Positions 1 through 40,027 of a stretch of 44,371 bases of DNA are shown here, piece by piece. Under the pieces are notes generated by a model. It saw only the letters and a list, made by a program, of their open reading frames with translations, made no database searches and was not told where the DNA came from. Source of the DNA: Escherichia phage 6949; the sequence record OL362273.1. One strand, written 5' to 3'. The first letter of the stretch is position 1. Each line of letters starts with the position of its first letter. The position numbers and the translations under genes are program-made.

Positions 1-195
1 ATGATTAACTCCGAACTGGTAGATAGTGGTGTGAAGCTTGCGCCACCTGCACTCGTATCAGGTGGGTACTTCCTCGGTATCAGTTGGGATAATTGGGTGT
101 TAATAGCAACATTCATTTATACCGTGTTGCAAATTGGGGACTGGTTTTATAATAAGTTCAAGATTTGGAGGGAGAAGCGTGAGCGTACACAATAA
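1..195 (+). CDS. Holin (T7 gp17.5-like, class II)
   Basis: The 64 aa translation resembles T7 gp17.5 as I recall it (ELV..APP..G..FLGIS.D.W..IA.FIYTVLQIG), with a hydrophobic core and a basic C-terminal tail. It lies just upstream of the terminase genes, and its RBS AAGGAGGT sits at 44361-44368, the last bases of the permuted window. Confidence 0.7.
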   Translation: MINSELVDSGVKLAPPALVSGGYFLGISWDNWVLIATFIYTVLQIGDWFYNKFKIWREKRERTQ

Positions 196-478
196 ACATG
201 CAGCTACAGAGGATGAGGTTGGCATTCTGCATGGTGCTATTACCAAAATCTTCAATAAGAAAGCACAGGCAATACTGGACACTATAGAAGAAGACCCTGA
301 TGCAGCATTACATTTAGTGTCTGGTAAGGATATTGGTGCGATGTGTAAGTGGGTTCTTGATAACGGCATTACCGCCACACCTGCTGCACAGCAGGAAGAG
401 TCCAAGTTATCTAAGCGCCTCAAGGCTATCCGAGAGGCATCCAGTGGTAAGATAATTCAATTCACTAAGGAGGATTGA
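179..478 (+). CDS. Terminase small subunit (T7 gp18-like)
   Basis: The ORF lies directly upstream of the large terminase and overlaps it by a TGATG junction. I prefer the GTG start at 179 because it follows RBS GGAGGG (167-172). The track start at ATG 134 overlaps the holin by 62 nt and lacks an RBS. The assignment is by position and size only. Confidence 0.55.
   Translation: MSVHNKHAATEDEVGILHGAITKIFNKKAQAILDTIEEDPDAALHLVSGKDIGAMCKWVLDNGITATPAAQQEESKLSKRLKAIREASSGKIIQFTKED
270..292 (+). promoter_or_regulatory. Candidate SP6-type promoter inside the small terminase gene
   Basis: CAATACTGGACACTATA followed by GAAGAA. The core from -13 to +6 is perfect, and there are three mismatches in the upstream AT-rich part. 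Confidence 0.45.
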
Positions 479-2376
479 TGGCTAAGGCAAGAGAATCACA
501 AGCGGAGGCTCTTGCCAGATGGGAGATGCTACAGGAGTTACAGCAGACCTTTCCTTACACAGCGGAAGGTTTGCTTCTCTTTGCAGATACAGTTATTCAT
601 AACTTAATTGCAGGCAACCCTCATCTGATTCGTATGCAGGCTGATATCTTGAAGTTCCTATTTTACGGACACAAGTACCGCCTCATCGAAGCGCCTCGTG
701 GTATCGCTAAGACAACACTATCAGCAATCTATACGGTATTCCGTATTATTCATGAACCGCATAAGCGTATCATGGTTGTGTCCCAAAACGCCAAGCGAGC
801 AGAGGAGATCGCAGGTTGGGTAGTTAAAATCTTCCGTGGCTTAGACTTTCTTGAGTTTATGCTGCCGGATATCTACGCTGGGGATCGTGCATCCGTTAAG
901 GCGTTTGAGATTCATTACACCCTACGTGGTAGTGATAAGTCTCCTTCTGTATCCTGTTACTCAATCGAAGCAGGTATGCAGGGTGCTCGTGCTGATATTA
1001 TTCTAGCGGATGACGTAGAGTCGATGCAGAACGCTCGTACGGCAGCGGGCCGTGCCTTGCTTGAGGAACTGACTAAGGAGTTTGAATCTATCAACCAGTT
1101 TGGGGATATAATTTACCTTGGTACACCTCAGAACGTAAACTCTATCTACAACAACCTACCTGCTCGTGGTTACTCTGTTCGTATCTGGACTGCGCGTTAC
1201 CCTTCAGTAGAGCAAGAGCAATGTTATGGCGACTTCCTTGCACCTATGATTGTTCAAGATATGAAGGACAACCCAGCACTTCGCTCAGGGTACGGGTTGG
1301 ATGGTAATAGTGGTGCACCTTGTGCCCCTGAAATGTATGATGATGAAGTCCTGATTGAGAAGGAAATCTCTCAGGGTGCTGCTAAGTTCCAGCTTCAGTT
1401 CATGCTTAACACTCGCATGATGGATGCTGACAGATACCCATTACGCCTGAACAATCTAATCTTCACCTCGTTTGGTACAGAGGAAGTCCCTGTGATGCCT
1501 ACGTGGAGTAATGATTCCATAAACATCATTGGTGATGCACCTAAGTATGGTAACAAGCCTACAGACTTCATGTACAGACCTGTAGCTCGCCCATACGAAT
1601 GGGGTGCTGTCTCCCGCAAGATTATGTATATTGACCCTGCGGGTGGCGGTAAGAACGGGGATGAGACGGGTGTAGCCATCGTATTCCTGCACGGCACATT
1701 CATTTATGTGTATCAGTGCTTTGGTGTACCTGGCGGATACCGAGAATCGTCCCTGAATCGCATTGTGCAGGCCGCAAAGCAGGCTGGTGTTAAAGAGGTA
1801 TTCATTGAGAAGAACTTTGGTCATGGCGCGTTTGAGGCGGTAATTAAGCCGTACTTTGAACGAGAGTGGCCTGTAACTCTGGAAGAGGATTACGCCACCG
1901 GACAGAAAGAGTTGCGTATCATTGAGACGCTGGAGCCGCTCATGGCAGCCCATAGGCTTATCTTCAATGCAGAGATGGTGAAGTCAGACTTTGAGTCGGT
2001 ACAGCACTATCCGCTTGAACTACGCATGTCCTACAGTCTTTTCAATCAAATGTCGAACATAACGATTGAGAAGAACAGCCTCCGGCACGATGACCGCCTA
2101 GACGCCCTGTATGGCGCTATACGGCAATTAACTTCTCAGATAGACTATGACGAGGTTACTCGAATTAATCGCCTCAGAGCGCAGGAGATGCGTGATTACA
2201 TCCATGCTATGAACACACCTCATCTGCGCAGGGCAATGCTATATGGAGATTACGGTACGGAGCGAAGAGTGACCAACACTTCCGTAGCGATGCAGCAGCG
2301 AGTTTACGGGCAGAACTACCGAAATAAATCGGCAAGCAGAAATGCACTTTCTGCAAGGATTTCAAGGACTTATTAA
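478..2376 (+). CDS. Terminase large subunit (T7 gp19-like)
   Basis: A roughly 632 aa ORF with the size and position of the T7-group large terminase. ATG 478 follows RBS AAGGAGG (467-473); the track start at 475 is a TTG. Confidence 0.88.
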   Translation: MAKARESQAEALARWEMLQELQQTFPYTAEGLLLFADTVIHNLIAGNPHLIRMQADILKFLFYGHKYRLIEAPRGIAKTTLSAIYTVFRIIHEPHKRIMVVSQNAKRAEEIAGWVVKIFRGLDFLEFMLPDIYAGDRASVKAFEIHYTLRGSDKSPSVSCYSIEAGMQGARADIILADDVESMQNARTAAGRALLEELTKEFESINQFGDIIYLGTPQNVNSIYNNLPARGYSVRIWTARYPSVEQEQCYGDFLAPMIVQDMKDNPALRSGYGLDGNSGAPCAPEMYDDEVLIEKEISQGAAKFQLQFMLNTRMMDADRYPLRLNNLIFTSFGTEEVPVMPTWSNDSINIIGDAPKYGNKPTDFMYRPVARPYEWGAVSRKIMYIDPAGGGKNGDETGVAIVFLHGTFIYVYQCFGVPGGYRESSLNRIVQAAKQAGVKEVFIEKNFGHGAFEAVIKPYFEREWPVTLEEDYATGQKELRIIETLEPLMAAHRLIFNAEMVKSDFESVQHYPLELRMSYSLFNQMSNITIEKNSLRHDDRLDALYGAIRQLTSQIDYDEVTRINRLRAQEMRDYIHAMNTPHLRRAMLYGDYGTERRVTNTSVAMQQRVYGQNYRNKSASRNALSARISRTY

Positions 2377-9016: not shown

Positions 9017-9196
9017 ATGACATTAAACAACCGTGAACTATCCGTTCTCTTCACTCTGTTGTGCTACATGATTCGTAAAAACGAATTGCTTACAGATGAC
9101 GAGTTAGCCTTGTATCACCGCTTTCTTAACGAAGGTTGGACCGATACAGTTAATCAATACCGTAACATGATAGATGAGTTGAGGGAGGGTAAATAA
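9017..9196 (+). CDS. Early hypothetical protein
   Basis: RBS GAGGGA precedes ATG 9017, which is in frame within track ORF 8975-9196. It is the first gene of the early region. Confidence 0.5.
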   Translation: MTLNNRELSVLFTLLCYMIRKNELLTDDELALYHRFLNEGWTDTVNQYRNMIDELREGK

Positions 9197-11536: not shown

Positions 11537-14164
11537 ATGCAAGACCTACACGCTATTCAACTTCAACTTGAAGAAGAAATGTTTAACGGCGGTATCCGTC
11601 GCTTTGAAGCGGACCAACAACGCCAGATTGCATCCGGTAATGAATCAGACACGGCATGGAATCGCCGCTTATTGTCCGAGTTAATCGCGCCAATGGCTGA
11701 AGGTATTCAGGCATACAAGGAAGAGTATGAAGGTAAAAGAGGCCGTGCACCGCGTGCATTAGCTTTCATTAACTGCGTAGAAAACGAAGTGGCAGCATAT
11801 ATCACGATGAAAATCGTTATGGATATGCTGAACACGGATGTAACCTTGCAGGCTATAGCCATGAATGTAGCTGACCGCATTGAGGACCAAGTACGTTTTA
11901 GCAAGCTGGAAGGTCACGCCGCCAAATACTTTGAGAAAGTTAAGAAGTCACTTAAGGCAAGTAAGACTAAATCATATCGCCATGCGCACAACGTAGCGGT
12001 CGTGGCTGAGAAGTCAGTAGCTGACCGTGACGCTGATTTCTCTCGCTGGGAGGCATGGCCTAAAGACACCTTGCTGCAAATTGGGATGACCTTGCTTGAA
12101 ATCTTAGAGAATAGCGTATTCTTCAACGGGCAACCTGTCTTCCTCCGCACCTTGCGCACTAATGGCGGCAAACATGGTGTTTACTACCTACAGACTAGTG
12201 AACACGTAGGTGAGTGGATAACTGCATTTAAAGAACATGTAGCGCAACTTAGTCCAGCCTATGCACCTTGCGTTATTCCTCCGCGTCCGTGGGTATCACC
12301 CTTTAACGGTGGGTTTCATACTGAGAAAGTAGCAAGCCGTATTCGTCTGGTAAAAGGCAATCGTGAGCACGTCCGCAAGCTGACCAAAAAGCAAATGCCA
12401 GCGGTTTACAAGGCTGTTAACGCTTTGCAGGCGACTAAGTGGCAGGTTAATAAAGAGGTTTTACAGGTTGTGGAGGACGTTATACGTCTAGACCTCGGCT
12501 ATGGTGTACCTTCCTTTAAACCACTCATCGACCGTGAGAACAAGCCCGCTAATCCGGTGCCGTTAGAGTTCCAGCACCTGCGAGGCCGTGAACTGAAAGA
12601 AATGCTTACGCCGGAACAATGGCAAGCCTTTATCAACTGGAAAGGTGAATGTACTAAGCTGTACACCGCTGAAACTAAGCGCGGAAGCAAATCGGCGGCA
12701 ACCGTTCGCATGGTTGGTCAGGCCCGTAAATATAGCCAGTTCGACGCAATCTACTTCGTGTATGCACTGGACAGCCGCAGCCGTGTATACGCGCAATCTA
12801 GCACGCTCTCGCCGCAATCAAACGACTTAGGCAAGGCATTGCTCCGTTTTACCGAAGGGCAGCGTCTTGATAGCGCTGAGGCGCTTAAGTGGTTTTTGGT
12901 GAACGGGGCTAATAACTGGGGTTGGGATAAGAAAACTTTTGACGTGCGCACCGCTAACGTGCTGGATAGTGAATTTCAAGACATGTGCCGCGACATTGCA
13001 GCGGATCCGCTGACCTTCACTCAATGGGTAAATGCCGACTCCCCTTACGGCTTCCTTGCATGGTGCTTTGAATATGCGCGTTATCTGGATGCACTGGATG
13101 AAGGCACGCAAGACCAATTCATGACGCACCTCCCAGTCCATCAAGATGGTAGTTGTTCTGGTATCCAGCACTACAGTGCTATGCTACGCGATGCAGTAGG
13201 TGCGAAAGCAGTAAACCTTAAGCCCTCTGACTCCCCTCAAGATATTTATGGCGCGGTTGCGCAGGTTGTTATCCAGAAGAATTACGCCTACATGAATGCA
13301 GACGACGCAGTGACTTTCACATCTGGAAGCGTCACACTTACAGGTGCAGAACTGCGTAGCATGGCTAGTGCGTGGGATATGATAGGAATCACTCGCGGAT
13401 TGACCAAAAAGCCCGTAATGACACTACCTTATGGCAGCACACGTCTAACCTGCCGTGAATCAGTGATTGATTATATCGTTGATTTAGAAGAAAAAGAGGC
13501 CCAACGGGCTATTGCGGAAGGGCGTACCGCCAATCCTGTACACCCTTTTGATAATGACCGTAAAGACAGCCTGACACCTAGCGCAGCTTATAACTATATG
13601 ACAGCTTTAATCTGGCCTTCTATTTCGGAAGTGGTTAAAGCTCCTATAGTGGCAATGAAAATGATTCGTCAGCTTGCCCGTTTCGCAGCTAAAAGGAATG
13701 AAGGCTTAGAGTATACCCTGCCTACTGGCTTCATCTTGCAACAAAAGATTATGGCTACTGATATGCTACGCGTATCTACTTGCTTGATGGGAGAAATCAA
13801 GATGAGTCTACAGATTGAAACGGACGTAGTAGATGAAACGGCAATGATGGGCGCTGCTGCTCCTAACTTTGTGCATGGTCATGATGCCAGTCACCTTATC
13901 TTAACGGTCTGCGACCTTGTTGATAAAGGGATTACATCTATCGCAGTAATTCATGATTCTTTTGGCACTCATGCAGGCCGTACAGCCGATCTACGCAACA
14001 GCTTAAGGGCAGAAATGGTGAAGATGTATCAAGGCCGTAATGCACTGCAAAGCCTGCTAGATGAGCACGAAGAACGCTGGTTAGTTGATACAGGAATACA
14101 AGTACCAGAGCAAGGGGAGTTTGACCTTAACGAAATCTTAGTTTCAGACTATTGCTTCGCATAA
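11537..14164 (+). CDS. Single-subunit DNA-directed RNA polymerase (SP6-type)
   Basis: The 875 aa protein starts [32 protein letters not shown], matching the SP6 RNA polymerase N-terminus as I remember it. The catalytic region reads [19 protein letters not shown] and VIHDSFGTH, and the C-terminus ends ..FA. Confidence 0.97.
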
Positions 14165-14278: not shown

Positions 14279-14439
14279 CCGTCGGAGACGGGAAAGAAAG
14301 GGAAGATAAAGGATATAAAGGAAGTAATAGGTATTAAAGGTTATATAGGTTATCTAGGAATACCTATTACCTTCTTCCTTCCTCTTATTACCACTCAGAG
14401 GAAGGGCAGACCTAGGTTGTCTCACATGTGAGACTTCGT
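14279..14439. other. Origin-like region between twin phage promoters (possible primary replication origin)
   Basis: A purine-rich tract (GGAAAGAAAGGGAAGATAAAGGATATAAAGGAAG) and its pyrimidine-rich mirror flank a 12 bp perfect inverted repeat (GTAATAGGTATT at 14324-14335 and AATACCTATTAC at 14359-14370) around an AT-rich spacer. The position matches the T7 primary origin between gene 1 and gene 1.1. Confidence 0.4.
14419..14434. repeat. Palindrome family copy (GTCTCACATGTGAGAC, perfect)
   Basis: A 16 bp perfect palindrome, 5 bp upstream of the promoter at 14440. Confidence 0.55.
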
Positions 14440-14462
14440 ATTTACCGGACAGTATAGATAAG
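14440..14462 (+). promoter_or_regulatory. SP6-type phage promoter variant (ACAGTATAG core)
   Basis: ATTTACCGGACAGTATA followed by GATAAG. It carries a C to G change in the core relative to the other copies. Confidence 0.6.
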
Positions 14463-14487
14463 ACTAACTTACTTTGGAGATTTAACC

Positions 14488-14619: not shown

Positions 14620-16608
14620 ATGGCTATTATTCAGAATGTACCGTGTCCTGCCTGTCAAAAGAACGGACATGATATTACTGGCAATCATTTAATGATCTTT
14701 GACGACGGGGCAGGATACTGTAACCGTGGTCACTTCCATGATAACGGTAAACCTTATTACCACAAGCCGGAAGGTGGCATCGAGATAACCGAGTTACCTA
14801 TTACTGGCAATATCAAATATACACCTTCTCAATTCAAAGAAATGGAGAAGGAAGGGAAGATAAGCGACCCTAAATTACGTGCCATCGCACTAGGTGGTAT
14901 GCGTATGAAAGACCGTTGGGAGGTCATGAATGAGCAAGAAAGGGCAGACCAAGAAGCAGAGTGGAAACTTGATGTTGAATGGTTCCTCACGCTTAAGCGT
15001 AAGAACCTTGTTTCCCGACACATTCGCGGCGACATTTGCGCATTGTATGATGTACGTGTCGGACACGATGAAGAGGGTAGAGTCTCGCGGCATTACTATC
15101 CACGCTTCGAGAAAGGTGAGCTAGTAGGAGCTAAGTGTCGTACCTTACCTAAAGATTTCAAGTTTGGACACTTAGGTAAACTCTTTGGTATGCAAGATCT
15201 TTTCGGTATGAATACTTTGTCTCACGTGTTAGACAAGGGAAGACGAAAGGATTGCTTGCTTATTGTGGGTGGGGAACTGGATGCACTAGCAGCGCAGCAG
15301 ATGCTCCTTGATTCTGCCAAGGGTACTAAGTGGGAAGGTCAACCTTACCATGTATGGTCTGTTAACAAAGGGGAGTCTTGCCTTGAAGAGATTGTGCAGA
15401 ACCGTGAACACATCGCCCAATTCAAGAAGATTATTTGGGGCTTCGATGGGGATGAGGTAGGGCAGAAGCAGAACCAGCAAGCGGCTCGCCTGTTCCCTGG
15501 CAAATCCTATATCCTTGAGTACCCTTCTGGTTGCAAAGATGCCAACAAGGCATTGATGGCTGGCAAGGCTAAAGAGTTTGTTGATGCATGGTTTAATGCC
15601 AAGTCATCTGATGAAGTCTTTGGTAGCCAGATTAAATCTATCGCATCTCAAAGGGATAAGCTCAAGGCTGCACGTCCAGAGCAAGGACTATCATGGCCTT
15701 GGCCTAAGCTGAACAAGGTAACGCTAGGTATTCGTAAGAATCAGCTTATCATTGTAGGTGCAGGGTCTGGTGTAGGTAAGACTGAGTTCCTTCGTGAAGT
15801 AGTTAAGCACCTCATTGAAGAACACGGTGAATCTGTAGGCATCATTTCTACAGAAGACCCGATGGTCAAGGTGTCCCGTGCTTTTATCGGCAAGTGGATT
15901 GATAAGCGTATTGAGTTACCGCCAACCAACGACCCGAAAGAAGACGGATACCGTGAGGTGTTCGATTACACCGAGGAAGAAGCTAACGCCGCCATTGATT
16001 ATGTAGCTGATACAGGTAAGCTGTTTGTAGTTGACCTAGAGGGTGACTATTCGATGGAAAAGGTAGAGCAAACTTGCCTAGAGTTTGAGGCTATGGGTAT
16101 TTCTAATATCATCATTGATAACTTAACGGGGATTAAATTAGATGAGCGTGCTTTTGGTGGGAAGGTTGGTGCACTTGATGAATGCGTCAAGCGGATTGGT
16201 ACTATCAAAGACCGACACCCGGTTACTATATTCCTTGTATCACACCTTACACGTCCTCCGGCAAACCGTACCCAACACGAAGAAGGTGGCGAAGTTATCC
16301 TTTCTGACTTCCGAGGCTCAGGCGCTATCGGATTCTGGGCATCTTACGCCTTGGGGATTGAGCGTAATACAAGAGCTGAAACGCTTGACGAAAGGACTAC
16401 CACGTACATCTCATGTGTCAAAGACCGCGACCAAGGTATCTGGACTGGAACCAAGGTCATGCTTAAGGGTGACATTCAAACCGGACGTTTAATGGAACCA
16501 CAAGCCCGTACTAAGTCATTTGACACCGGCGAAGCAAGGCAACAAGAAGTACCGGATTTACCGGACACTATAGAAGAGACTAACTTCGATGAAGAAAGTG
16601 AGTTCTGA
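14620..16608 (+). CDS. DNA primase/helicase (T7 gp4-like)
   Basis: The N-terminus has a zinc-binding motif (CPACQ...C.RGH), and the helicase domain has a Walker A motif (GAGSGVGKTEF). The C-terminus is acidic and ends in Phe (DEESEF), as in T7 gp4. Confidence 0.93.
   Translation: MAIIQNVPCPACQKNGHDITGNHLMIFDDGAGYCNRGHFHDNGKPYYHKPEGGIEITELPITGNIKYTPSQFKEMEKEGKISDPKLRAIALGGMRMKDRWEVMNEQERADQEAEWKLDVEWFLTLKRKNLVSRHIRGDICALYDVRVGHDEEGRVSRHYYPRFEKGELVGAKCRTLPKDFKFGHLGKLFGMQDLFGMNTLSHVLDKGRRKDCLLIVGGELDALAAQQMLLDSAKGTKWEGQPYHVWSVNKGESCLEEIVQNREHIAQFKKIIWGFDGDEVGQKQNQQAARLFPGKSYILEYPSGCKDANKALMAGKAKEFVDAWFNAKSSDEVFGSQIKSIASQRDKLKAARPEQGLSWPWPKLNKVTLGIRKNQLIIVGAGSGVGKTEFLREVVKHLIEEHGESVGIISTEDPMVKVSRAFIGKWIDKRIELPPTNDPKEDGYREVFDYTEEEANAAIDYVADTGKLFVVDLEGDYSMEKVEQTCLEFEAMGISNIIIDNLTGIKLDERAFGGKVGALDECVKRIGTIKDRHPVTIFLVSHLTRPPANRTQHEEGGEVILSDFRGSGAIGFWASYALGIERNTRAETLDERTTTYISCVKDRDQGIWTGTKVMLKGDIQTGRLMEPQARTKSFDTGEARQQEVPDLPDTIEETNFDEESEF
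16556..16578 (+). promoter_or_regulatory. SP6-type phage promoter inside the 3' end of the primase/helicase gene
   Basis: ATTTACCGGACACTATA followed by GAAGAG; the predicted +1 G is at 16573. Confidence 0.75.
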
Positions 16609-16646: not shown

Positions 16647-16684
16647 GGCTCTTATTAAGTACATTAAATAACTGGAGATTGATT

Positions 16685-17368
16685 ATGTATAAATTAGTAT
16701 TGAATGTAGGTGATTATGTTCGTAACATCAATGTAACCTCACGTAGATATCGTTGCCGTGGTACTGTGACTAATGTAAGTGAAAACAGCTACTATGTAGA
16801 ATACAGTAATGGTATTAGACAGGCTTATCAAAAGGAATCAGCACATAACTACCTTGAGAAGATTGGAGAGGTAAGCAATCAATGTAAGTGCGTACACGAT
16901 GAGATTTGCGATAAGTGTGCCCGCCAGCTGCATAAAATGCTATTATACCCTCTTCGCTATGGTGCTGGTGTTCAAACATTAGCAGAGGCATATGGCAAAA
17001 GTAAGACCACACTCAAGAAAGAGCGCCGCAATGTAATCACTGGTAAGACTCAAAGTGAAATGATTAAACTATGTGGCACTGCATTAGGTGTTACGCAGTT
17101 TAATACTCGTTCATTGGGTAAATCCACAGGGCAAGCTATGGTGAAGATTGGCGAAGCCATGATGCATCCAAATGTACCTGTACGAATCATGGATGTTGAC
17201 CATGCAATCACAGAACACGGTACGCAACGACGTGTAATTAATAAGCATTTTGCCGACACTATAGAAGGTATTATTCGTAAGCAAGAGTTGAAGGGTCTTC
17301 ACATCTTAAATGGTGAAGAATTACTGTACCTACCTATCGTTACTGAAGAAACATACGTGAATATCTAA
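16685..17368 (+). CDS. Hypothetical protein with Cys cluster and a possible helix-turn-helix segment
   Basis: RBS GGAG precedes ATG 16685; the track start at 16679 is a TTG. The protein has a CKCVHDEICDKC cluster and the segment YGAGVQTLAEAYGKSKTTL. Confidence 0.6.
   Translation: MYKLVLNVGDYVRNINVTSRRYRCRGTVTNVSENSYYVEYSNGIRQAYQKESAHNYLEKIGEVSNQCKCVHDEICDKCARQLHKMLLYPLRYGAGVQTLAEAYGKSKTTLKKERRNVITGKTQSEMIKLCGTALGVTQFNTRSLGKSTGQAMVKIGEAMMHPNVPVRIMDVDHAITEHGTQRRVINKHFADTIEGIIRKQELKGLHILNGEELLYLPIVTEETYVNI
17247..17269 (+). promoter_or_regulatory. Candidate internal SP6-type promoter (degenerate upstream half)
   Basis: ATTTTGCCGACACTATA followed by GAAGGT. The core from -12 to +5 is intact, and there are three mismatches upstream. 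Confidence 0.4.
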
Positions 17369-29404: not shown

Positions 29405-30955
29405 ATGAAACAGAGCACAGATTTGGAGTATGGAGGTAAGCGGTCTAAGATACCTAAGCTATGGGAGAAATTCTCCACTAAACGTAGCTCTTTCCTTGAT
29501 AGGGCGAAGCATTACTCCAAATTAACCTTGCCCTATCTGATGAATGACAAAGGTGATAACGAGACTTCGCAGAATGGATGGCAAGGTGTAGGTGCTCAGG
29601 CAACCAACCATCTAGCCAACAAGCTAGCGCAAGTACTATTCCCTGCACAGCGTTCCTTCTTCCGTGTAGACTTAACTGCACAAGGTGAGAAGGTTCTTAA
29701 TCAGCGTGGCCTGAAGAAGACAGAGCTAGCTACCATCTTCGCTCAAGTGGAAACACGGGCAATGAAAGAGTTAGAGCAACGTCAATTCCGACCTGCTGTA
29801 GTAGAAGCATTTAAGCATCTTATTGTTGCTGGCAGCTGTATGCTATACAAGCCGAGCAAAGGTGCAATCAGTGCTATCCCAATGCATCACTACGTAGTTA
29901 ACCGTGATACCAATGGCGACCTGTTAGACATTATCTTGCTACAAGAGAAAGCCTTACGTACCTTTGACCCAGCTACACGTGCTGTAGTAGAGGTTGGCCT
30001 GAAAGGTAAGAAGTGCAAAGAAGATGACAGCGTTAAGCTGTACACACATGCTAAGTATCTTGGTGATGGATTTTGGGAACTCAAGCAATCTGCTGATGAT
30101 ATCCCTGTGGGTAAGGTGAGTAAAATCAAATCAGAAAAGCTACCTTTCATCCCATTAACTTGGAAGCGAAGCTATGGTGAGGATTGGGGTCGCCCTCTTG
30201 CAGAGGATTACTCCGGTGATTTATTCGTTATCCAATTCTTATCTGAAGCGGTTGCCCGTGGTGCTGCGCTGATGGCAGATATCAAGTACCTGATTCGTCC
30301 GGGTGCTCAAACTGATGTTGACCACTTTGTTAACTCTGGCACTGGTGAGGTTATCACTGGTGTAGAAGAAGACATCCATATTGTACAGTTAGGTAAGTAT
30401 GCAGATCTCACACCCATTAGCGCGGTTCTAGAGGTATACACTCGCCGTATCGGTGTTGTCTTCATGATGGAGACAATGACACGCCGTGACGCCGAACGTG
30501 TTACTGCTGTAGAAATCCAGCGAGATGCGTTAGAGATTGAGCAGAACATGGGTGGTGTATACTCCCTCTTTGCTACTACTATGCAATCGCCAGTAGCGAT
30601 GTGGGGTCTGCTGGAGGCAGGGGAGTCCTTCACTAGTGACCTAGTGGACCCTGTGATTATCACAGGTATTGAAGCTTTAGGACGCATGGCTGAGTTGGAT
30701 AAACTGGCTAACTTTGCTCAGTATATGTCACTGCCATTACAATGGCCTGAGCCTGTCCTAGCTGCTGTGAAATGGCCTGACTATATGGATTGGGTGCGTG
30801 GTCAAATCTCTGCTGAACTGCCGTTCCTTAAATCAGCTGAAGAGATGGCACAAGAACAGGAAGCACAGATGCAAGCACAGCAAGCACAGATGCTTGAAGA
30901 AGGTGTGGCTAAGGCCGTGCCGGGTGTAATTCAACAAGAACTTAAGGAGGCGTAA
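29405..30955 (+). CDS. Head-tail connector (portal) protein (T7 gp8-like)
   Basis: A 516 aa ORF in the gp8 position, immediately upstream of scaffold and capsid. Its C-terminus is acidic and Gln-rich. Confidence 0.88.
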   Translation: MKQSTDLEYGGKRSKIPKLWEKFSTKRSSFLDRAKHYSKLTLPYLMNDKGDNETSQNGWQGVGAQATNHLANKLAQVLFPAQRSFFRVDLTAQGEKVLNQRGLKKTELATIFAQVETRAMKELEQRQFRPAVVEAFKHLIVAGSCMLYKPSKGAISAIPMHHYVVNRDTNGDLLDIILLQEKALRTFDPATRAVVEVGLKGKKCKEDDSVKLYTHAKYLGDGFWELKQSADDIPVGKVSKIKSEKLPFIPLTWKRSYGEDWGRPLAEDYSGDLFVIQFLSEAVARGAALMADIKYLIRPGAQTDVDHFVNSGTGEVITGVEEDIHIVQLGKYADLTPISAVLEVYTRRIGVVFMMETMTRRDAERVTAVEIQRDALEIEQNMGGVYSLFATTMQSPVAMWGLLEAGESFTSDLVDPVIITGIEALGRMAELDKLANFAQYMSLPLQWPEPVLAAVKWPDYMDWVRGQISAELPFLKSAEEMAQEQEAQMQAQQAQMLEEGVAKAVPGVIQQELKEA

Positions 30956-31875: not shown

Positions 31876-31882
31876 TTCAGTA

Positions 31883-31905
31883 TTTACTGGACACTATAGA
31901 AGGGA
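31883..31905 (+). promoter_or_regulatory. SP6-type phage promoter for the capsid gene (phi10 analog)
   Basis: ATTTACTGGACACTATA followed by GAAGGG, with the predicted +1 G at 31900. A leader stem-loop GGGAGAA-AAG-TTCTCCC follows at 31902-31918. Confidence 0.85.
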
Positions 31906-31954: not shown

Positions 31955-33163
31955 ATGTCTACACCGAATACTCTGACTAACGTTGCTGTATCTGCATCCG
32001 GTGAGGTTGACAGCCTTCTCATTGAGAAGTTTAATGGTAAGGTCAATGAGCAGTACCTGAAAGGTGAGAACATTCTGTCCTACTTTGATGTACAAACTGT
32101 TACTGGCACTAACACAGTGAGCAACAAATATTTGGGCGAAACTGAGTTGCAGGTGCTAGCACCGGGTCAGTCTCCTAATGCCACCCCTACTCAGGCGGAT
32201 AAAAACCAGTTGGTAATTGATACCACTGTCATTGCTCGTAACACTGTGGCTCACATCCACGATGTACAAGGTGACATCGATAGCCTGAAACCAAAATTGG
32301 CTATGAACCAAGCCAAGCAACTGAAACGTCTGGAAGACCAGATGGCAATTCAGCAGATGCTGTTAGGCGGTATTGCTAACACCAAGGCCAAACGTAACAA
32401 GCCGCGTGTTAAAGGGCATGGCTTCTCTATCAACGTTAACGTAACTGAGAGTGAAGCACTGGCTAACCCTCAGTATGTTATGGCTGCGGTAGAGTATGCT
32501 CTGGAGCAACAGCTTGAGCAGGAAGTGGACATCTCTGATGTAGCTATCATGATGCCGTGGAAGTTCTTCAATGCTCTGCGTGATGCAGACCGAATTGTAG
32601 ATAAGACTTACACTATCAGCCAGTCTGGTGCAACCATTAATGGCTTCGTTCTCTCTTCTTATAACTGCCCTGTGATCCCGTCTAACCGATTCCCTACCTT
32701 CGCTCAGAATCAGGCTCACCACCTGTTGTCTAATGAAGATAACGGCTATCGTTATGACCCTATCGCAGAGATGAATGGTGCAGTTGCTGTTCTGTTCACT
32801 GCCGACGCACTGCTGGTGGGTCGTACCATTGAAGTGACTGGTGACATCTTCTATGAGAAGAAAGAGAAGACTTATTACATTGACACCTTCATGGCTGAGG
32901 GTGCAATCCCTGACCGTTGGGAAGCAGTGTCTGTAGTTACCACTAAACGTAATGCAACTACTGGTGCTGCTGAAGTTTCTGGTGATGATCACGCAACCGT
33001 ACTGGCTCGTGCACAGCGTAAGGCTGTATATGTCAAAACCGAAGGTGCTGCGGCTGCATTCTCTGCTGCCCCAGCAGGTATCCAAGCGGAAGACCTTGTA
33101 GCGGCGGTACGTGCTGTAATGGCAAATGACATTAAGCCGACTGCAATGAAACCTACTGAGTAA
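31955..33163 (+). CDS. Major capsid protein (T7 gp10-like)
   Basis: A 402 aa ORF with RBS AAGGAG, bracketed by a strong promoter with a stabilising leader hairpin and a strong terminator. Confidence 0.9.
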   Translation: MSTPNTLTNVAVSASGEVDSLLIEKFNGKVNEQYLKGENILSYFDVQTVTGTNTVSNKYLGETELQVLAPGQSPNATPTQADKNQLVIDTTVIARNTVAHIHDVQGDIDSLKPKLAMNQAKQLKRLEDQMAIQQMLLGGIANTKAKRNKPRVKGHGFSINVNVTESEALANPQYVMAAVEYALEQQLEQEVDISDVAIMMPWKFFNALRDADRIVDKTYTISQSGATINGFVLSSYNCPVIPSNRFPTFAQNQAHHLLSNEDNGYRYDPIAEMNGAVAVLFTADALLVGRTIEVTGDIFYEKKEKTYYIDTFMAEGAIPDRWEAVSVVTTKRNATTGAAEVSGDDHATVLARAQRKAVYVKTEGAAAAFSAAPAGIQAEDLVAAVRAVMANDIKPTAMKPTE

Positions 33164-33171
33164 CACCTATG

Positions 33172-33207
33172 CCCTATCTACCTTGCGTAGGTAGGGTTCT
33201 TTTTGTT
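33172..33207 (+). terminator. Intrinsic terminator after the capsid gene (T-phi analog)
   Basis: The 9 bp stem CCCUAUCUA / UAGGUAGGG (one G-U pair) encloses a 7 nt loop and is followed by TTCTTTTTGTT. Confidence 0.7.
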
Positions 33208-33955: not shown

Positions 33956-36357
33956 TGGAAGTACAAGGTTCATTAGGTAGACAAATCCAAGGGATTAGCC
34001 AGCAGCCGCCAGCGGTACGCTTGGATGGTCAGTGCACAGCTATGGTTAATATGATACCTGATGTAGTGAATGGTACTCAATCACGCATGGGTACAACTCA
34101 TATTGCAAAGATACTTGATGCGGGGACTGATGACATGGCTACCCATCATTATCGCAGAGGTGATGGTGATGAAGAGTATTTCTTCACGTTGAAGAAAGGA
34201 CAAGTTCCTGAGATATTTGATAAGTATGGGCGCAAATGTAATGTGACTTCACAAGATGCACCTATGACCTACCTCTCTGAGGTTGTTAATCCAAGGGAAG
34301 ATGTGCAATTCATGACGATAGCTGATGTTACTTTCATGCTTAATCGTAGGAAAGTAGTTAAAGCTAGTAGCAGTAAGTCACCTAAAGTTGGAAACAAAGC
34401 CATTGTGTTTTGTGCGTATGGTCAATATGGTACATCTTATTCCATTGTAATTAATGGGGCCAACGCTGCTAGTTTTAAAACACCGGATGGTGGAAGTGCA
34501 GACCATGTTGAACAAATTCGAACTGAACGTATCACTTCTGAATTGTACTCTAAGTTGCAGCAATGGAGCGGTGTGAGTGACTATGAAATACAAAGAGACG
34601 GTACTAGTATATTTATCGAGAGACGGGATGGTGCTAGCTTTACAATAACAACCACCGATGGTGCAAAAGGTAAGGACTTAGTGGCTATCAAGAATAAAGT
34701 TAGCTCTACTGACCTACTCCCTTCTCGTGCGCCTGCTGGTTATAAAGTACAAGTGTGGCCTACTGGCAGCAAACCTGAGTCTCGTTACTGGCTGCAAGCT
34801 GAGCCTAAAGAGGGAAACCTTGTGTCTTGGAAAGAAACAATAGCTGCTGATGTATTACTTGGGTTTGATAAAGGCACAATGCCTTACATTATTGAACGTA
34901 CAGATATCATCAACGGCATAGCTCAATTCAAGATAAGACAAGGTGATTGGGAAGATCGTAAAGTAGGGGATGACTTGACTAACCCTATGCCCTCTTTTAT
35001 TGATGAGGAAGTACCCCAGACAATAGGTGGAATGTTCATGGTGCAGAACCGCCTATGCTTTACAGCAGGTGAAGCGGTTATTGCTTCTCGTACATCCTAC
35101 TTCTTCGATTTCTTTCGTTATACGGTTATCTCTGCATTGGCAACTGACTCCTTTGATATTTTCTCAGATGCTAGTGAAGTCTACCAGCTAAAACATGCAG
35201 TGACCTTAGATGGCGCTACCGTGTTGTTCTCTGATAAGTCACAATTCATACTGCCAGGCGATAAGCCTTTAGAGAAGTCAAATGCACTGCTTAAGCCTGT
35301 TACAACATTTGAAGTGAACAATAAAGTGAAGCCAGTAGTAACTGGTGAATCGGTAATGTTTGCCACTAATGATGGTTCTTACTCTGGTGTACGAGAGTTC
35401 TATACAGACTCTTATAGTGACACTAAGAAGGCACAAGCAATCACAAGTCATGTGAATAAACTCATCGAAGGTAACATTACCAACATGGCAGCAAGCACCA
35501 ATGTCAACAGGTTACTTGTCACTACCGATAAGTATCGTAACATAATCTACTGCTACGATTGGTTATGGCAAGGAACAGACCGTGTACAATCAGCATGGCA
35601 TGTATGGAAGTGGCCTATAGGTACAAAGGTGCGAGGTATGTTTTATTCTGGTGAATTACTTTACCTGCTCCTTGAGCGAGGAGATGGCGTGTATCTGGAG
35701 AAGATGGACATGGGTGATGCACTAACCTATGGTTTGAATGGCCGCATCAGAATGGATAGGCAAGCAGAGTTAGTCTTCAAGCATTTCAAAGCAGAAGATG
35801 AATGGGTATCTGAGCCGCTCCCTTGGGTTCCTACTAACCCAGAACTTTTAGATTGCATCTTAATCGAGGGTTGGGATTCATATATTGGCGGCTCTTTCTT
35901 ATTCAAGTACAACCCTAGTGACAATACTTTGTCTACAACCTTTGATATATATGATGACAGCCATGTAAAAGCGAAGGTTATTGTTGGTCAGATTTACCCT
36001 CAAGAGTTTGAACCTACGCCTGTGGTTATCAGAGACAATCAAGACCGTGTATCCTACATTGATGTACCAGTTGTAGGATTGGTTCACCTTAATCTTGACA
36101 TGTACCCCGATTTCTCCGTAGAAGTTAAGAATGTGAAGAGTGGTAAAGTACGTAGAGTATTAGCGTCAAACCGTATAGGTGGTGCTCTCAATAATACAGT
36201 AGGCTATGTTGAACCGAGAGAAGGTGTCTTCAGATTTCCACTGAGAGCTAAGAGCATGGATGTTGTTTATCGTATTATTGTAGAGTCACCTCACACATTC
36301 CAGCTTCGTGATATTGAGTGGGAAGGGAGCTACAATCCAACCAAAAGGAGGGTCTAA
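33955..36357 (+). CDS. Tail tubular protein B (T7 gp12-like)
   Basis: The N-terminus LGRQIQGISQQPPAVRLDGQ carries the GISQQP motif seen in T7 gp12. The size is about 800 aa. Confidence 0.85.
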   Translation: MEVQGSLGRQIQGISQQPPAVRLDGQCTAMVNMIPDVVNGTQSRMGTTHIAKILDAGTDDMATHHYRRGDGDEEYFFTLKKGQVPEIFDKYGRKCNVTSQDAPMTYLSEVVNPREDVQFMTIADVTFMLNRRKVVKASSSKSPKVGNKAIVFCAYGQYGTSYSIVINGANAASFKTPDGGSADHVEQIRTERITSELYSKLQQWSGVSDYEIQRDGTSIFIERRDGASFTITTTDGAKGKDLVAIKNKVSSTDLLPSRAPAGYKVQVWPTGSKPESRYWLQAEPKEGNLVSWKETIAADVLLGFDKGTMPYIIERTDIINGIAQFKIRQGDWEDRKVGDDLTNPMPSFIDEEVPQTIGGMFMVQNRLCFTAGEAVIASRTSYFFDFFRYTVISALATDSFDIFSDASEVYQLKHAVTLDGATVLFSDKSQFILPGDKPLEKSNALLKPVTTFEVNNKVKPVVTGESVMFATNDGSYSGVREFYTDSYSDTKKAQAITSHVNKLIEGNITNMAASTNVNRLLVTTDKYRNIIYCYDWLWQGTDRVQSAWHVWKWPIGTKVRGMFYSGELLYLLLERGDGVYLEKMDMGDALTYGLNGRIRMDRQAELVFKHFKAEDEWVSEPLPWVPTNPELLDCILIEGWDSYIGGSFLFKYNPSDNTLSTTFDIYDDSHVKAKVIVGQIYPQEFEPTPVVIRDNQDRVSYIDVPVVGLVHLNLDMYPDFSVEVKNVKSGKVRRVLASNRIGGALNNTVGYVEPREGVFRFPLRAKSMDVVYRIIVESPHTFQLRDIEWEGSYNPTKRRV

Positions 36358-37079
36358 TGGCTATAGGTTCAGCCGTTATGGCTGGTATGTCTTCTATTGG
36401 TAGCATGTTTGCAGGCAGTGGTGCAGCAGCCGCTGCTGGAGGTGCTGCCGCAGGTGGCGGAGGTTTGCTAGGTTCACTAGGTGGATTCCTAAGTGGCTCT
36501 ACTGCTGGTTTCTCTAATGCTGGCCTTCTTGGTGCTGGCCTTCAAGGGTTAGGCTTGATTGGTGATCTATTTGGTGGAAGTGATGAAGCCAAGGCGATGA
36601 AGAAAGCACAAGAAGAGCAATGGCGGCAGCAGCTTATTGCTACACAAGAGGCGTACAAGACAGTGGCAGACGCAGAACGTTCTGCTGCTAAACAATATCA
36701 TGCAGATGCAATCAGTAATCAGGCTTCACTGCTACAGCAGCGAGCACAGGTTGCATTACTTGCTGGGGCTACTGGTACTGGTGGTAATTCTGTGTCCTCT
36801 ATGCTTAATGACTTAGCAGCAGATGGCGGCAGGAACCAGAGTACTATCATTGATAACTATGAGAATCAGAAGATTAATTTCACCAACCAGCTTAAGTCTA
36901 TCCAACGTGGTGGTCAGATGCAGATGCGTGAGTTTAAGAAGCCTTCTGCTATGAATACCTTGGTTAAAGGTATTCCAAGTCTGGCATCTGCCTATGTAAC
37001 TGGTAGTAAGTCTGGCAAGGCATTGGGTAAAGTCTTAACTGATTCTCGCACATATTCATCTGGAACAAGAGGTATTTAA
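36357..37079 (+). CDS. Internal virion protein (small, Gly-rich N-terminus)
   Basis: RBS AAGGAGGG precedes the ATG, which is coupled through TAATG. The protein has a Gly/Ala-rich N-terminus and a helical C-terminal half. Confidence 0.65.
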   Translation: MAIGSAVMAGMSSIGSMFAGSGAAAAAGGAAAGGGGLLGSLGGFLSGSTAGFSNAGLLGAGLQGLGLIGDLFGGSDEAKAMKKAQEEQWRQQLIATQEAYKTVADAERSAAKQYHADAISNQASLLQQRAQVALLAGATGTGGNSVSSMLNDLAADGGRNQSTIIDNYENQKINFTNQLKSIQRGGQMQMREFKKPSAMNTLVKGIPSLASAYVTGSKSGKALGKVLTDSRTYSSGTRGI

Positions 37080-40027
37080 TGGCAATTGAGCGACAAGCAG
37101 TACAAGGTCTGCCACAAGTGCAGGCCACTTCTCCTAATGTCATGACCTTTGCACCTCAACAAGTGGGAGGTGTGGAGGCTGGCGTGGCTTCTACCTCCGG
37201 TAGTAGGTTTATCGAAGACCTTATTCGTGCAGCAAGCAGCGTGGCTGATGTTACCACTGGTATCCTTAATCAGAAGATTGAGGAAGATAAGGTTGTTCAA
37301 ATGGAACGGGCATATAACGGATTAATGCCTTCTGAGGATGCAACTCGTGGTGGCGCTCGTGCTAACATGCTTGTCAAAGCTCAACTGCTAGCTAATGATG
37401 AAGCAGCACGAATGAAAGACATGGCTACTCGTTTCCAAGGAACGGATGACGAATGGACACAACTTATGGTTGACTCTCGTAATGAGATGCAGAATAAGCT
37501 GTTCCAGCAATACCCTGAGTTGCAAGGTGACAAAGATACTATGCGTATGGTCACTAATGTCTTCCAAGAACAGCAGCCTCAGATTTGGGCTACACGAACC
37601 CAGCATAAACTTGACCGTGAACAAGCAGACCGTGAGGATACCTTTGACGGGCGAGTGGCTTCTACTTGGGATTCTAATATTGACCCTGAAGCCTCTGGCT
37701 ATGCTTTACAGGAACGAATCCGCGAAGGTCTTACTCAAGGATTACTACCTGAACAGATGCACAAGAAGTTAGTCCAGCGAGCAATTTCACTTGCACAAGG
37801 CGGTGATGTTAGCATGGCTGAAGCCCTGAAGTATGTGAAGGACGATAAGGGTGTTTCTGTTTATGCTAAGAATCCACAGCTTATCACAGCCATCACTAGT
37901 GGTAATGCAGTTTGGGCTAGGAATAATGTAGCTGATGTAACTCGTATGTCTTTCGAAGTTAAAGAATCCTACCTTGCAGGTGATTTAACTGATGAAGAAC
38001 TGTTGGAACGAGCACAGCACATTAATAATCTGACAGGTAACTCTGTCTTCTCTAATCCAGAGCTAGAGGCACTGATGCGCCAACGGGCTAAGCAGAATGC
38101 AGAGCTAGGTGCAATGCAGGATATGCGACGTGAGCTTTACTCTGACCGCCTGACTGGCTTCCAAGGTAAGACTGATAAAGAGAAGAAGGCTTACATTGAT
38201 GTTATCAAACAGGATAGCCAACTTTATGCAGACCAGCAAATCAAACAACGTGGCTTGGACCCTTACAGTCAAGAGGCTGAAGCTATTCGTGGTGCAGTGG
38301 AAGTGCAGCGCCTGCAATTCATGAACTCCAAAGGCTTAGTGGATGATACCTTTGAGTCTCGTATCAAAGCCATGGAATCTATGCTATCGCCTGAGCACTT
38401 TGCCAAGGGCGAACCACAGGAGTTGATGACTATTCGCCAGTTGTGGGAACAGTTGCCAGAAGAGAGCCGAGGTGTCTTTGGTGACACGGTGAATGGCTAC
38501 ATGGATAACTACAACACTGCACTACAAATGGGAGAGACACCTTTGCAGGCTGCAAGGTTTGCGCGTGAAGCACAGCAGAAATTCTCTCGTACTGAGAAGG
38601 AAACCAAGAAGTTCAACTCAGCTATTGGAGATGCACTGGATGAGGTATCTGGTGCTGGCTGGTTTGATGGTAAAACCGAAGTGTCAGACTTAGGTAAAGC
38701 TATTGCGGAAGAAGAGTTACGAGCTAAGGCCAATATGTTGTGGTCTAGTGGTATGCGTAACATGGATTCTATCAAGAGGGCTTTAATTACTTGGGGCAAT
38801 AAACGCTACACTCAAACAGAGGATGCAAAGACTTCCGGTGGCTATTTCATTAAAGGTGATTACACTTCTGCATCTGATATGCTTATGTCAGTTGGGAAAG
38901 GCGTAAACCCTACCGATGTACCTCTTGCGCTTGGTAGGTATGTAGAAACACAGATGCCAGAATTGAAGAAGGAGCTTCAAGAGTGGGAAACTAAAGATGA
39001 TATATACATTGATTACAATGAACAGAAAGGTACTTTCGTGATTCGTGCTGGTGCAGCAGGTCGCCCTCTTTCTGGAGTAATCCCTGTAACCTCTTTAGAT
39101 ACCACTTCACTACTAGATTCTGCCTATCAGAAGAAAGTAGAGGAACGAGATAAAGGCGAGTATGTTCACCCTTATCGTACAGATATTGGTGCACAAGAGC
39201 CTATGCCAGCTAAACCAACTGCCAAAGATATTGGTAAATTTGGACTAGCTAACTTCCTCATGTCTTCTGCTTTTGCTTCTGGTGAGAATCTGCCTTCTAA
39301 CTTCGAGATTAACTATCGAGGTAATATGCAACAATTCTATGACAAGCTAGCTATGGATGAGAATAAAGATAAAGTTGGCTTTAATAAGGCAACTGGAACC
39401 TTTACTCCATATAAAGATGCTCACGGTGAGTCTATCGGTTACGGTCATTTCTTAACGGAAGAAGAGAAGCGAAACGGGTATATTAAGATTGGTGATGAAC
39501 TAGTTCCCTATCGAGGGTCTATGTCTCAGCTTACAGAGAGCAAGGCTCGCGCTCTTATGGAGCAAGATGCCAAGAAGCATGTGCCTCCTACTCGTGACTG
39601 GAAGATTCCGTTTGACCAGATGCATCCTGCACAGCAACGTGGCTTGATGGATTTAACCTACAATTTAGGTAAAGGTGGAATCCAGAACTCACCGCGTGCT
39701 CTTGCTGCATTCAAAGCTGGTAAGCTTACGGAAGGCTTTATCGAAATGCTGGGCACTGCATCAAGTGAAGGTAAGCGTATCCATGGTTTACTGAAGCGAC
39801 GCGCTGAGGCATACAATATGGCATCTGCTGGTGGTGTGCCTAAGATTACCGAAGTGGAGACTCGTGAAGATGGCTCCATGTGGGTTAGGTTTGGTGGACC
39901 TATGCCAGCAGGTTCTGTCTCGGCATGGACTCATAAACGTATTGGCGCGGATGGTTGGTATCAGGTTTATGAGGCTGCACCTACCAAGTTAGCTAAAGGT
40001 TCTAAGGTGGGTAAATTTAAGTTGTAG
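37079..40027 (+). CDS. Internal virion (ejection) protein with C-terminal lysozyme-like peptidoglycan hydrolase domain
   Basis: A 982 aa ORF in the internal-protein block. The C-terminal region has YKDAHGESIGYGHFLTEEE, which resembles the T4 lysozyme core (YKDTEGYYTIGIGHLLT). Confidence 0.75.
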   Translation: MAIERQAVQGLPQVQATSPNVMTFAPQQVGGVEAGVASTSGSRFIEDLIRAASSVADVTTGILNQKIEEDKVVQMERAYNGLMPSEDATRGGARANMLVKAQLLANDEAARMKDMATRFQGTDDEWTQLMVDSRNEMQNKLFQQYPELQGDKDTMRMVTNVFQEQQPQIWATRTQHKLDREQADREDTFDGRVASTWDSNIDPEASGYALQERIREGLTQGLLPEQMHKKLVQRAISLAQGGDVSMAEALKYVKDDKGVSVYAKNPQLITAITSGNAVWARNNVADVTRMSFEVKESYLAGDLTDEELLERAQHINNLTGNSVFSNPELEALMRQRAKQNAELGAMQDMRRELYSDRLTGFQGKTDKEKKAYIDVIKQDSQLYADQQIKQRGLDPYSQEAEAIRGAVEVQRLQFMNSKGLVDDTFESRIKAMESMLSPEHFAKGEPQELMTIRQLWEQLPEESRGVFGDTVNGYMDNYNTALQMGETPLQAARFAREAQQKFSRTEKETKKFNSAIGDALDEVSGAGWFDGKTEVSDLGKAIAEEELRAKANMLWSSGMRNMDSIKRALITWGNKRYTQTEDAKTSGGYFIKGDYTSASDMLMSVGKGVNPTDVPLALGRYVETQMPELKKELQEWETKDDIYIDYNEQKGTFVIRAGAAGRPLSGVIPVTSLDTTSLLDSAYQKKVEERDKGEYVHPYRTDIGAQEPMPAKPTAKDIGKFGLANFLMSSAFASGENLPSNFEINYRGNMQQFYDKLAMDENKDKVGFNKATGTFTPYKDAHGESIGYGHFLTEEEKRNGYIKIGDELVPYRGSMSQLTESKARALMEQDAKKHVPPTRDWKIPFDQMHPAQQRGLMDLTYNLGKGGIQNSPRALAAFKAGKLTEGFIEMLGTASSEGKRIHGLLKRRAEAYNMASAGGVPKITEVETREDGSMWVRFGGPMPAGSVSAWTHKRIGADGWYQVYEAAPTKLAKGSKVGKFKL

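Follow-up and report, generated by a model that had tools for sequence, protein, structure and literature searches.

The small terminase gene of Escherichia phage 6949 (gene 39) contains a copy of the phage promoter that is genuine, not random, and oriented like the gene. On the basis of the sequence comparisons described below, we consider it likely (with a probability of roughly 0.6) that positions 270–292 constitute a working late promoter for the phage RNA polymerase (RNAP), which would top up the mRNA of the large terminase and of the distal late genes. All positions refer to the window, i.e. the whole stretch of 44,371 nucleotides that was analysed (sequence record OL362273.1), unless another genome is named. 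The gene-39 site is an element of an ordinary type that occupies a lineage-specific position. No promoter in gene 39 is annotated in any of the GenBank records examined, and the accessible literature yielded no 5′-end, promoter or transcript mapping for any Vectrevirus.

The window is a K1-5-like Vectrevirus genome, circularly permuted and beginning at the holin gene. Its first 3 kb show 98.6% identity with positions 35219–38225 of K1-5 (Vectrevirus, Molineuxvirinae), and position 1 of K1-5 corresponds approximately to position 9168 of the window. Since there are no direct repeats of at least 40 nt in the whole window, the terminal repeat is collapsed into one copy. All genes are located on the + strand, like all 13 promoter sites (Table 1), and the ATG of the large terminase gene (gene 40) overlaps the stop codon of gene 39 (TGATG). 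In some Vectrevirus genomes, the two terminase genes are separated by a gene for an HNH homing endonuclease (positions 631–1074 in L032 and 633–965 in L036), and in K1E (L004) and Kpp-61 (L007) the large terminase gene is split by a homing-endonuclease ORF (40A/40.5/40B; positions 38777–39310 and 37629–38162, respectively). The window has neither insertion, be it at the gene 39/40 junction or within the large terminase gene.

Table 1. Positions of genes, promoters and other elements discussed in the text (window coordinates unless another genome is given)
Feature	Position	Strand	Basis or remark
Holin gene	1–195	+	PF10746
Small terminase gene (gp39, 99 aa)	GTG 179 to TGA 478	+	PF11123, phrog_891
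Predicted phage-RNAP promoter in gene 39, 23 bp, −17 to +6: CAATACTGGACACTATAGAAGAA	270–292	+	Match to the genome's promoter set
Predicted transcription start, +1 G, initial GAA	287	+	Alignment with 12 other promoters
Shine–Dalgarno of large terminase, AAGGAGGA	467–474	+	Sequence; role inferred
Large terminase gene (gp40, 632 aa)	ATG 478 to 2376	+	PF22530 and several terminase PHROGs
Next promoter, directly after large terminase stop	2375–2397 (+1 2392)	+	Position kept in all Molineuxvirinae compared
Phage single-subunit RNA polymerase gene	11537–14164	+	PF00940 (E = 1e-89), PF14700
Promoter within coding sequence	16556–16578 (+1 16573)	+	35 nt before stop of ORF 14620–16608 (K1E gp9 counterpart, putative helicase)
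Promoter within coding sequence	17247–17269 (+1 17264)	+	104 nt before stop of ORF 16679–17368 (K1E gp10 counterpart)
Capsid-gene promoter (preceding late promoter)	31882–31904 (+1 31899)	+	
Capsid gene	31955–33163	+	
Terminator-like hairpin just after capsid gene	33171–33197	+	11 pairs and a T-run
All promoter +1 positions	287, 2392, 4056, 10294, 10539, 14273, 16573, 17264, 21514, 21977, 23123, 26256, 31899	+	
gp36-type internal site, other genomes (+1)	L006 30257, L013 3775, L017 3827, L019 3838, L021 3826		

The 18-mer TGGACACTATAGAAGAAG is found without mismatch at positions 276–293 of the + strand. The site lies 108 nt into the 300-nt small terminase gene and 191 nt before the ATG of the large terminase gene, in agreement with the original prediction, which had placed it within the small terminase gene, about 190 bp upstream of the large terminase. 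It is read in frame as GCA ATA CTG GAC ACT ATA GAA GAA (A I L D T I E E), and its predicted transcript begins with GAAG (+1 G followed by AA), in the orientation of the gene. The 12 promoter copies other than 287 give the consensus ATTTACTGGACACTATAGAAG(A/G)G, which the site matches from −14 to +5. The match had been described as perfect from −13 to +6; this stands with respect to the genome's own consensus, in which +6 is variable, but fails with respect to the classical SP6 promoter, which has GGT at −12 to −10 instead of the CTG found here.

When up to three mismatches are allowed, the 18-mer has nine matches, all on the + strand, compared to 0.04 expected by chance. A weight matrix built from the other 12 promoters assigns 25.0 bits to site 287. 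Leave-one-out scores of the 11 other promoters that align gap-free range from 20 to 39 bits (promoter 10539, which has a one-base offset in the ungapped alignment and scores −5.3, is left out of this range), and the best unrelated position on either strand of the window reaches 7.4 bits. The cognate single-subunit RNAP is encoded in the same genome. In addition to the 13 sites, we observed a fourteenth promoter-like site, ATTTACCGGACAGTATAGATAAG (positions 14435–14468, predicted +1 at 14457), with G for C at −5; it scores 22.6 bits and lies in the gap that follows the RNA polymerase gene, 184 nt downstream of promoter 14273.

The CTG at −12 to −10 is common to site 287 and the promoters at 2392, 4056, 21977, 23123 and 31899; three members of this group (2392, 4056 and 31899) are promoters of late genes. 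Site 287 also shares a 20-nt core (TACTGGACACTATAGAAGA) with the intergenic promoters of K1-5 and K1E, and it resembles them in strand and in the +1 G with its GAA start. Unlike these promoters, it sits in the middle of a coding sequence and deviates at −17 (C) and −15 (A). The A/T-rich upstream element at −17 to −15 is ATT, and site 287 has C-A-A in its place. The A at −16 also occurs in promoters 2392 and 21977. Positions −17 and −15 are A and T, invariant in the 11 promoters that align gap-free, and the C and A are unique to site 287; since these are differences from otherwise invariant bases, the strength of the site could be low. The K1E RNAP and its capsid promoter have already been used experimentally (PMC6412113).

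Promoters within coding sequences are nothing unusual in this phage. Promoters 16573 and 17264 each lie within the 3′ end of an ORF, an arrangement that is shared by the corresponding promoters of K1E and SP6. A further site within a gene was observed in SP6 (L005), where the SP6-type sequence TTAGGTGACACTATAGG, read L-G-D-T-I-G, lies inside the gene of an internal virion protein (SP6 gp36; +1 at 29410). Sites of this kind are also found in other genomes, even where a genome's own promoters belong to the CTGGAC type. The SP6 gp36 site is part of a late structural gene, situated after the capsid terminator and before the terminase genes, and it has the same GAC ACT ATA (D-T-I) reading as the gene-39 site; its 17-nt core is kept and its flanks vary. 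It differs from the gene-39 site in the gene that it occupies and in its GGTGAC specificity bases. SP6 has been reported to have 12 promoters (PMC11880802), a number that our own count reaches only if the gp36 intragenic site is included. The internal virion protein gene of the window (37079–40027) shows 31% identity over the aligned 42 residues and has no gp36-type site. We rejected the idea that gene-39 and gp36-type sites compensate for each other, since the two alleles with a mutated gene-39 core (L014 and L020; see below) carry no gp36-type site either.

The promoter DNA is not forced by the protein. With the codon usage of the genome, the probability of ILDTIE being written as ATA CTG GAC ACT ATA GAA is about 3.5e-4, and ATA, which occurs twice in the site, is the rarest isoleucine codon (16%). 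Shuffles, the weight-matrix scan and this codon-usage probability together rule out that the site is due to chance or a by-product of the protein sequence. The mismatches at −17 and −15 are situated on bases that are fixed by conserved alanine and isoleucine codons, and the free third position at −16 is A, T or G among relatives. The promoter is thus about as good as the protein permits.

To describe the conservation of the site, we used 25 Vectrevirus-type gene-39 copies from GenBank phages and IMG/VR (20 distinct, 87–100% identical) and five metagenome copies. Of the 30 copies, 28 have an intact core from −14 to +1, with the gene diverging by up to 13%. The L014 allele has a synonymous C-to-T change at −7, and the L020 allele has an A-to-G change at −8 that replaces D by G. 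Parsimony counts on a neighbour-joining tree of the 20 distinct alleles give two changes for the six third-codon positions of the core, compared to a median of 10 per six consecutive third positions in gene 39. However, the same degree of invariance is seen in 11 of the 95 such windows (the core and the stretches 179–208 and 410–439), and the test of synonymous conservation is therefore suggestive rather than decisive. With this caveat, the intact copies, the parsimony counts, the codon-usage probability and the codon-degenerate search described below support a conservation of the core across the genus that exceeds the demands of the protein. The invariant stretch 179–208 begins in the overlap with the holin gene. 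The stretch 410–439 (TCTAAGCGCCTCAAGGCTATCCGAGAG...), which shows almost no synonymous variation among the 20 alleles, is located approximately 40–70 nt upstream of the junction of genes 39 and 40, the place at which homing-endonuclease genes are inserted in relatives.

A degenerate back-translation of the peptide KKAQAILDTIE retrieved 10 IMG/VR and five metagenome loci, and 14 of these 15 use the exact promoter codons; the same pattern has no match in bacterial genomes. Past +4, the sequence varies freely (GAAGAAGAC, GAAGGGGAC, GAAGGAGAT, GAAGGTGAC and GAAGCAGAC), with replacements of E by G and of E by A included. The output of SP6 RNAP is reported to be best with GAA at +1 to +3 and not to depend on positions +4 to +8 (PMC7429497), and the free variation after +4 fits this dependence.

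Outside Vectrevirus, the site is absent: no promoter is present at the gene-39 position of SP6, Kpp-61, PM85, POP72 or F5M1D. The equivalent place reads ATC CTA GCT GCG GTA GAA GAA in SP6 and ATC CTC GAT GCT ATC GAG GAC in Kpp-61, and for POP72 and F5M1D the check used the promoter cores of these phages themselves (GGCGGACTATAG and GGCGAGTATAG), which we derived from repeated 11-mers. An orthologous SP6 promoter with covarying specificity bases was also considered and was not found at the equivalent place. Three late promoters are common to the Molineuxvirinae compared: one precedes the capsid gene, one follows directly on the large terminase gene and one precedes the tailspike gene. Whereas these are positionally conserved across the subfamily, the extra promoter in gene 39 occurs only in Vectrevirus among the genomes compared. 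Its absence from the five other Molineuxvirinae identifies it as a Vectrevirus-specific gain. Since sister genera do without the site and two natural alleles have a mutated core, it is dispensable; the element tunes expression and is not essential.

Within 17 nt, five synonymous changes and one A-to-T amino acid change separate the site from a Kpp-61-like sequence. The ancestral GAAGAAGAYCC resembled the initial transcribed sequence of other promoters (GAAGGAAGACC), and a single short conversion tract is thus a plausible origin of the gene-39 promoter, which we infer from this resemblance only. It is conceivable, but rather doubtful, that the site represents a recent genus-specific gain of overlapping code, perhaps by such a tract (five synonymous changes and A/E to T), that serves to uncouple the expression of the large terminase from that of the small one. 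If this were true, metagenomic core knock-outs of the L014 type would be natural experiments on how much uncoupling matters.

In the mechanism that we propose, the phage RNAP would bind to the site and start at G287. The resulting transcript would comprise the 3′-terminal 192 nt of gene 39, all of gene 40 (large terminase) and the genes that follow; among those served would be genes 41–45 (peptidase and spanin candidates included) and, further on, the tailspike genes. A message shortened for the small subunit, as originally proposed, is indeed what a start at this site would give: all of gp40 with its own Shine–Dalgarno sequence, and only the 3′ two-thirds of gp39, which would lack a start codon. 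The Shine–Dalgarno sequence at 467–474 would allow independent translation of the large terminase from such a transcript, and site 287 probably supplies extra large-terminase transcripts.

The arrangement of the late region is consistent with such a role. When the window is read as a circle, the weight-matrix scan finds no site above 7.4 bits between 31899 and 287; site 287 is the first promoter after the capsid terminator and is preceded by a promoter-free stretch of approximately 11.5 kb. In an SP6-like phage, a terminator has been reported at the same place, after the capsid gene (PMC4837284). Transcription from the capsid promoter would thus meet a strong terminator followed by the promoter-free stretch, and site 287 would renew it. 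Given this stretch, a start at 287 would lift the mRNA of the large terminase and of the distal late genes relative to genes 32–39, and an increase of large-terminase mRNA relative to small-terminase mRNA would be an automatic by-effect. This suggests a reading broader than the subunit ratio, namely the re-supply of the large terminase together with all downstream genes.

The promoter at 2392 starts 16 nt past the large terminase stop codon. At +76 to +95 of this promoter, we observed a GC-rich hairpin of eight pairs (2467–2486), which the record of one relative calls a terminator; its fold is no better than that of shuffled sequence (z = 0.11), and it has no good T-run. It may act as a leaky terminator, as a processing site or as a 5′ stabiliser. 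A dedicated gene-40 terminator that would produce a monocistronic message was therefore rejected, as this sole hairpin is situated past the next promoter and has a poor T-run. The predicted leader after 287 shows no unusual RNA structure compared to shuffled sequence (z = −0.98). A truncated small terminase starting from the in-frame ATG at 341 was rejected as well, since the AAGGA upstream of this codon is not kept in K1E (AAA GAC).

A similar arrangement is known from T7. In the account attributed to Dunn and Studier (1983), the T7 late promoters phi13 and phi17 are said to lie downstream of the T-phi terminator, and phi4c is said to lie inside gene 4. We know of no promoter inside the small terminase gene of T7 (gene 18). 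Like site 287, phi13 and phi17 are phage-RNAP promoters that re-supply distal late genes past a leaky post-capsid terminator, which in our case is a predicted one, and phi4c is a promoter within a reading frame, as in Vectrevirus. The T7 late promoters nevertheless have a different sequence specificity and no positional homology with site 287. Some T7 promoters are associated with replication origins.

Could the site be a cryptic or very weak promoter copy that arose once, perhaps by a short conversion tract from another promoter, gives no useful output and persists because it is nearly harmless and this part of the gene changes slowly? Its mismatches to the 11 other promoters aligning gap-free, at −17 and −15, would fit such a copy, as would its absence from sister genera and the existence of natural alleles with a mutated core; one of these changes is synonymous and was thus not under selection at the protein level. 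The core is also not the only stretch of gene 39 with so little synonymous variation, and an ancestral GAAGAAGAYCC that was already GAAGGAAGACC-like would have eased a conversion event. However, 28 of 30 copies have kept the site through up to 13% divergence, including its two rare ATA codons, and variation starts precisely where SP6 RNAP stops caring about sequence. Moreover, a 25-bit match is unlikely to be silent with a highly specific polymerase, and selection would be expected to purge, not to keep, a strong promoter that arose spuriously inside a gene. We regard a cryptic copy as improbable.

That the site is active, but was selected for the ratio of large to small terminase subunits via a message for the large subunit only, is possible, although we do not favor it. 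The geometry fits, with a start at 287 inside gene 39 and a strong gene-40 Shine–Dalgarno sequence at 467–474, and this is the only late promoter unique to the genus and lies immediately before gene 40. Nevertheless, transcripts from 287 would read into all downstream late genes, as there is no convincing terminator after gene 40, and SP6, Kpp-61, PM85, POP72 and F5M1D have homologous terminase pairs without such a promoter. Very unlikely, in our view, is a role other than mRNA supply, such as the priming of a secondary replication origin, or a conserved block that promotes recombination between phages. The former would have an analogy in the origin-associated promoters of T7, and the gene-39/40 junctions of relatives are mosaic, with homing-endonuclease insertions. 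Yet the site is followed neither by an AT-rich, origin-like region nor by a special RNA structure, it is located far from the genome ends, and no recombination breakpoints in our comparisons point to it. We prefer a late promoter that re-supplies the large terminase and the distal late genes; the extra large-terminase message may be what selection has acted on.

The finding is mainly of use as a caveat for annotation and engineering and raises no new question for the field. K1-5 and K1E phages find use in phage therapy and in synthetic biology. If gene 39 were recoded or codon-optimised, the promoter copy would be lost unnoticed, and cloning a fragment of this gene would bring a phage promoter into the construct. 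The site also provides a small and clean case of a reading frame that carries a superimposed regulatory signal, with a visible dual constraint. If it is active, K1-5-like phages and SP6 have different transcription maps, and the former possess an additional start site, dedicated to the large terminase and distal late genes, that annotation pipelines have missed.
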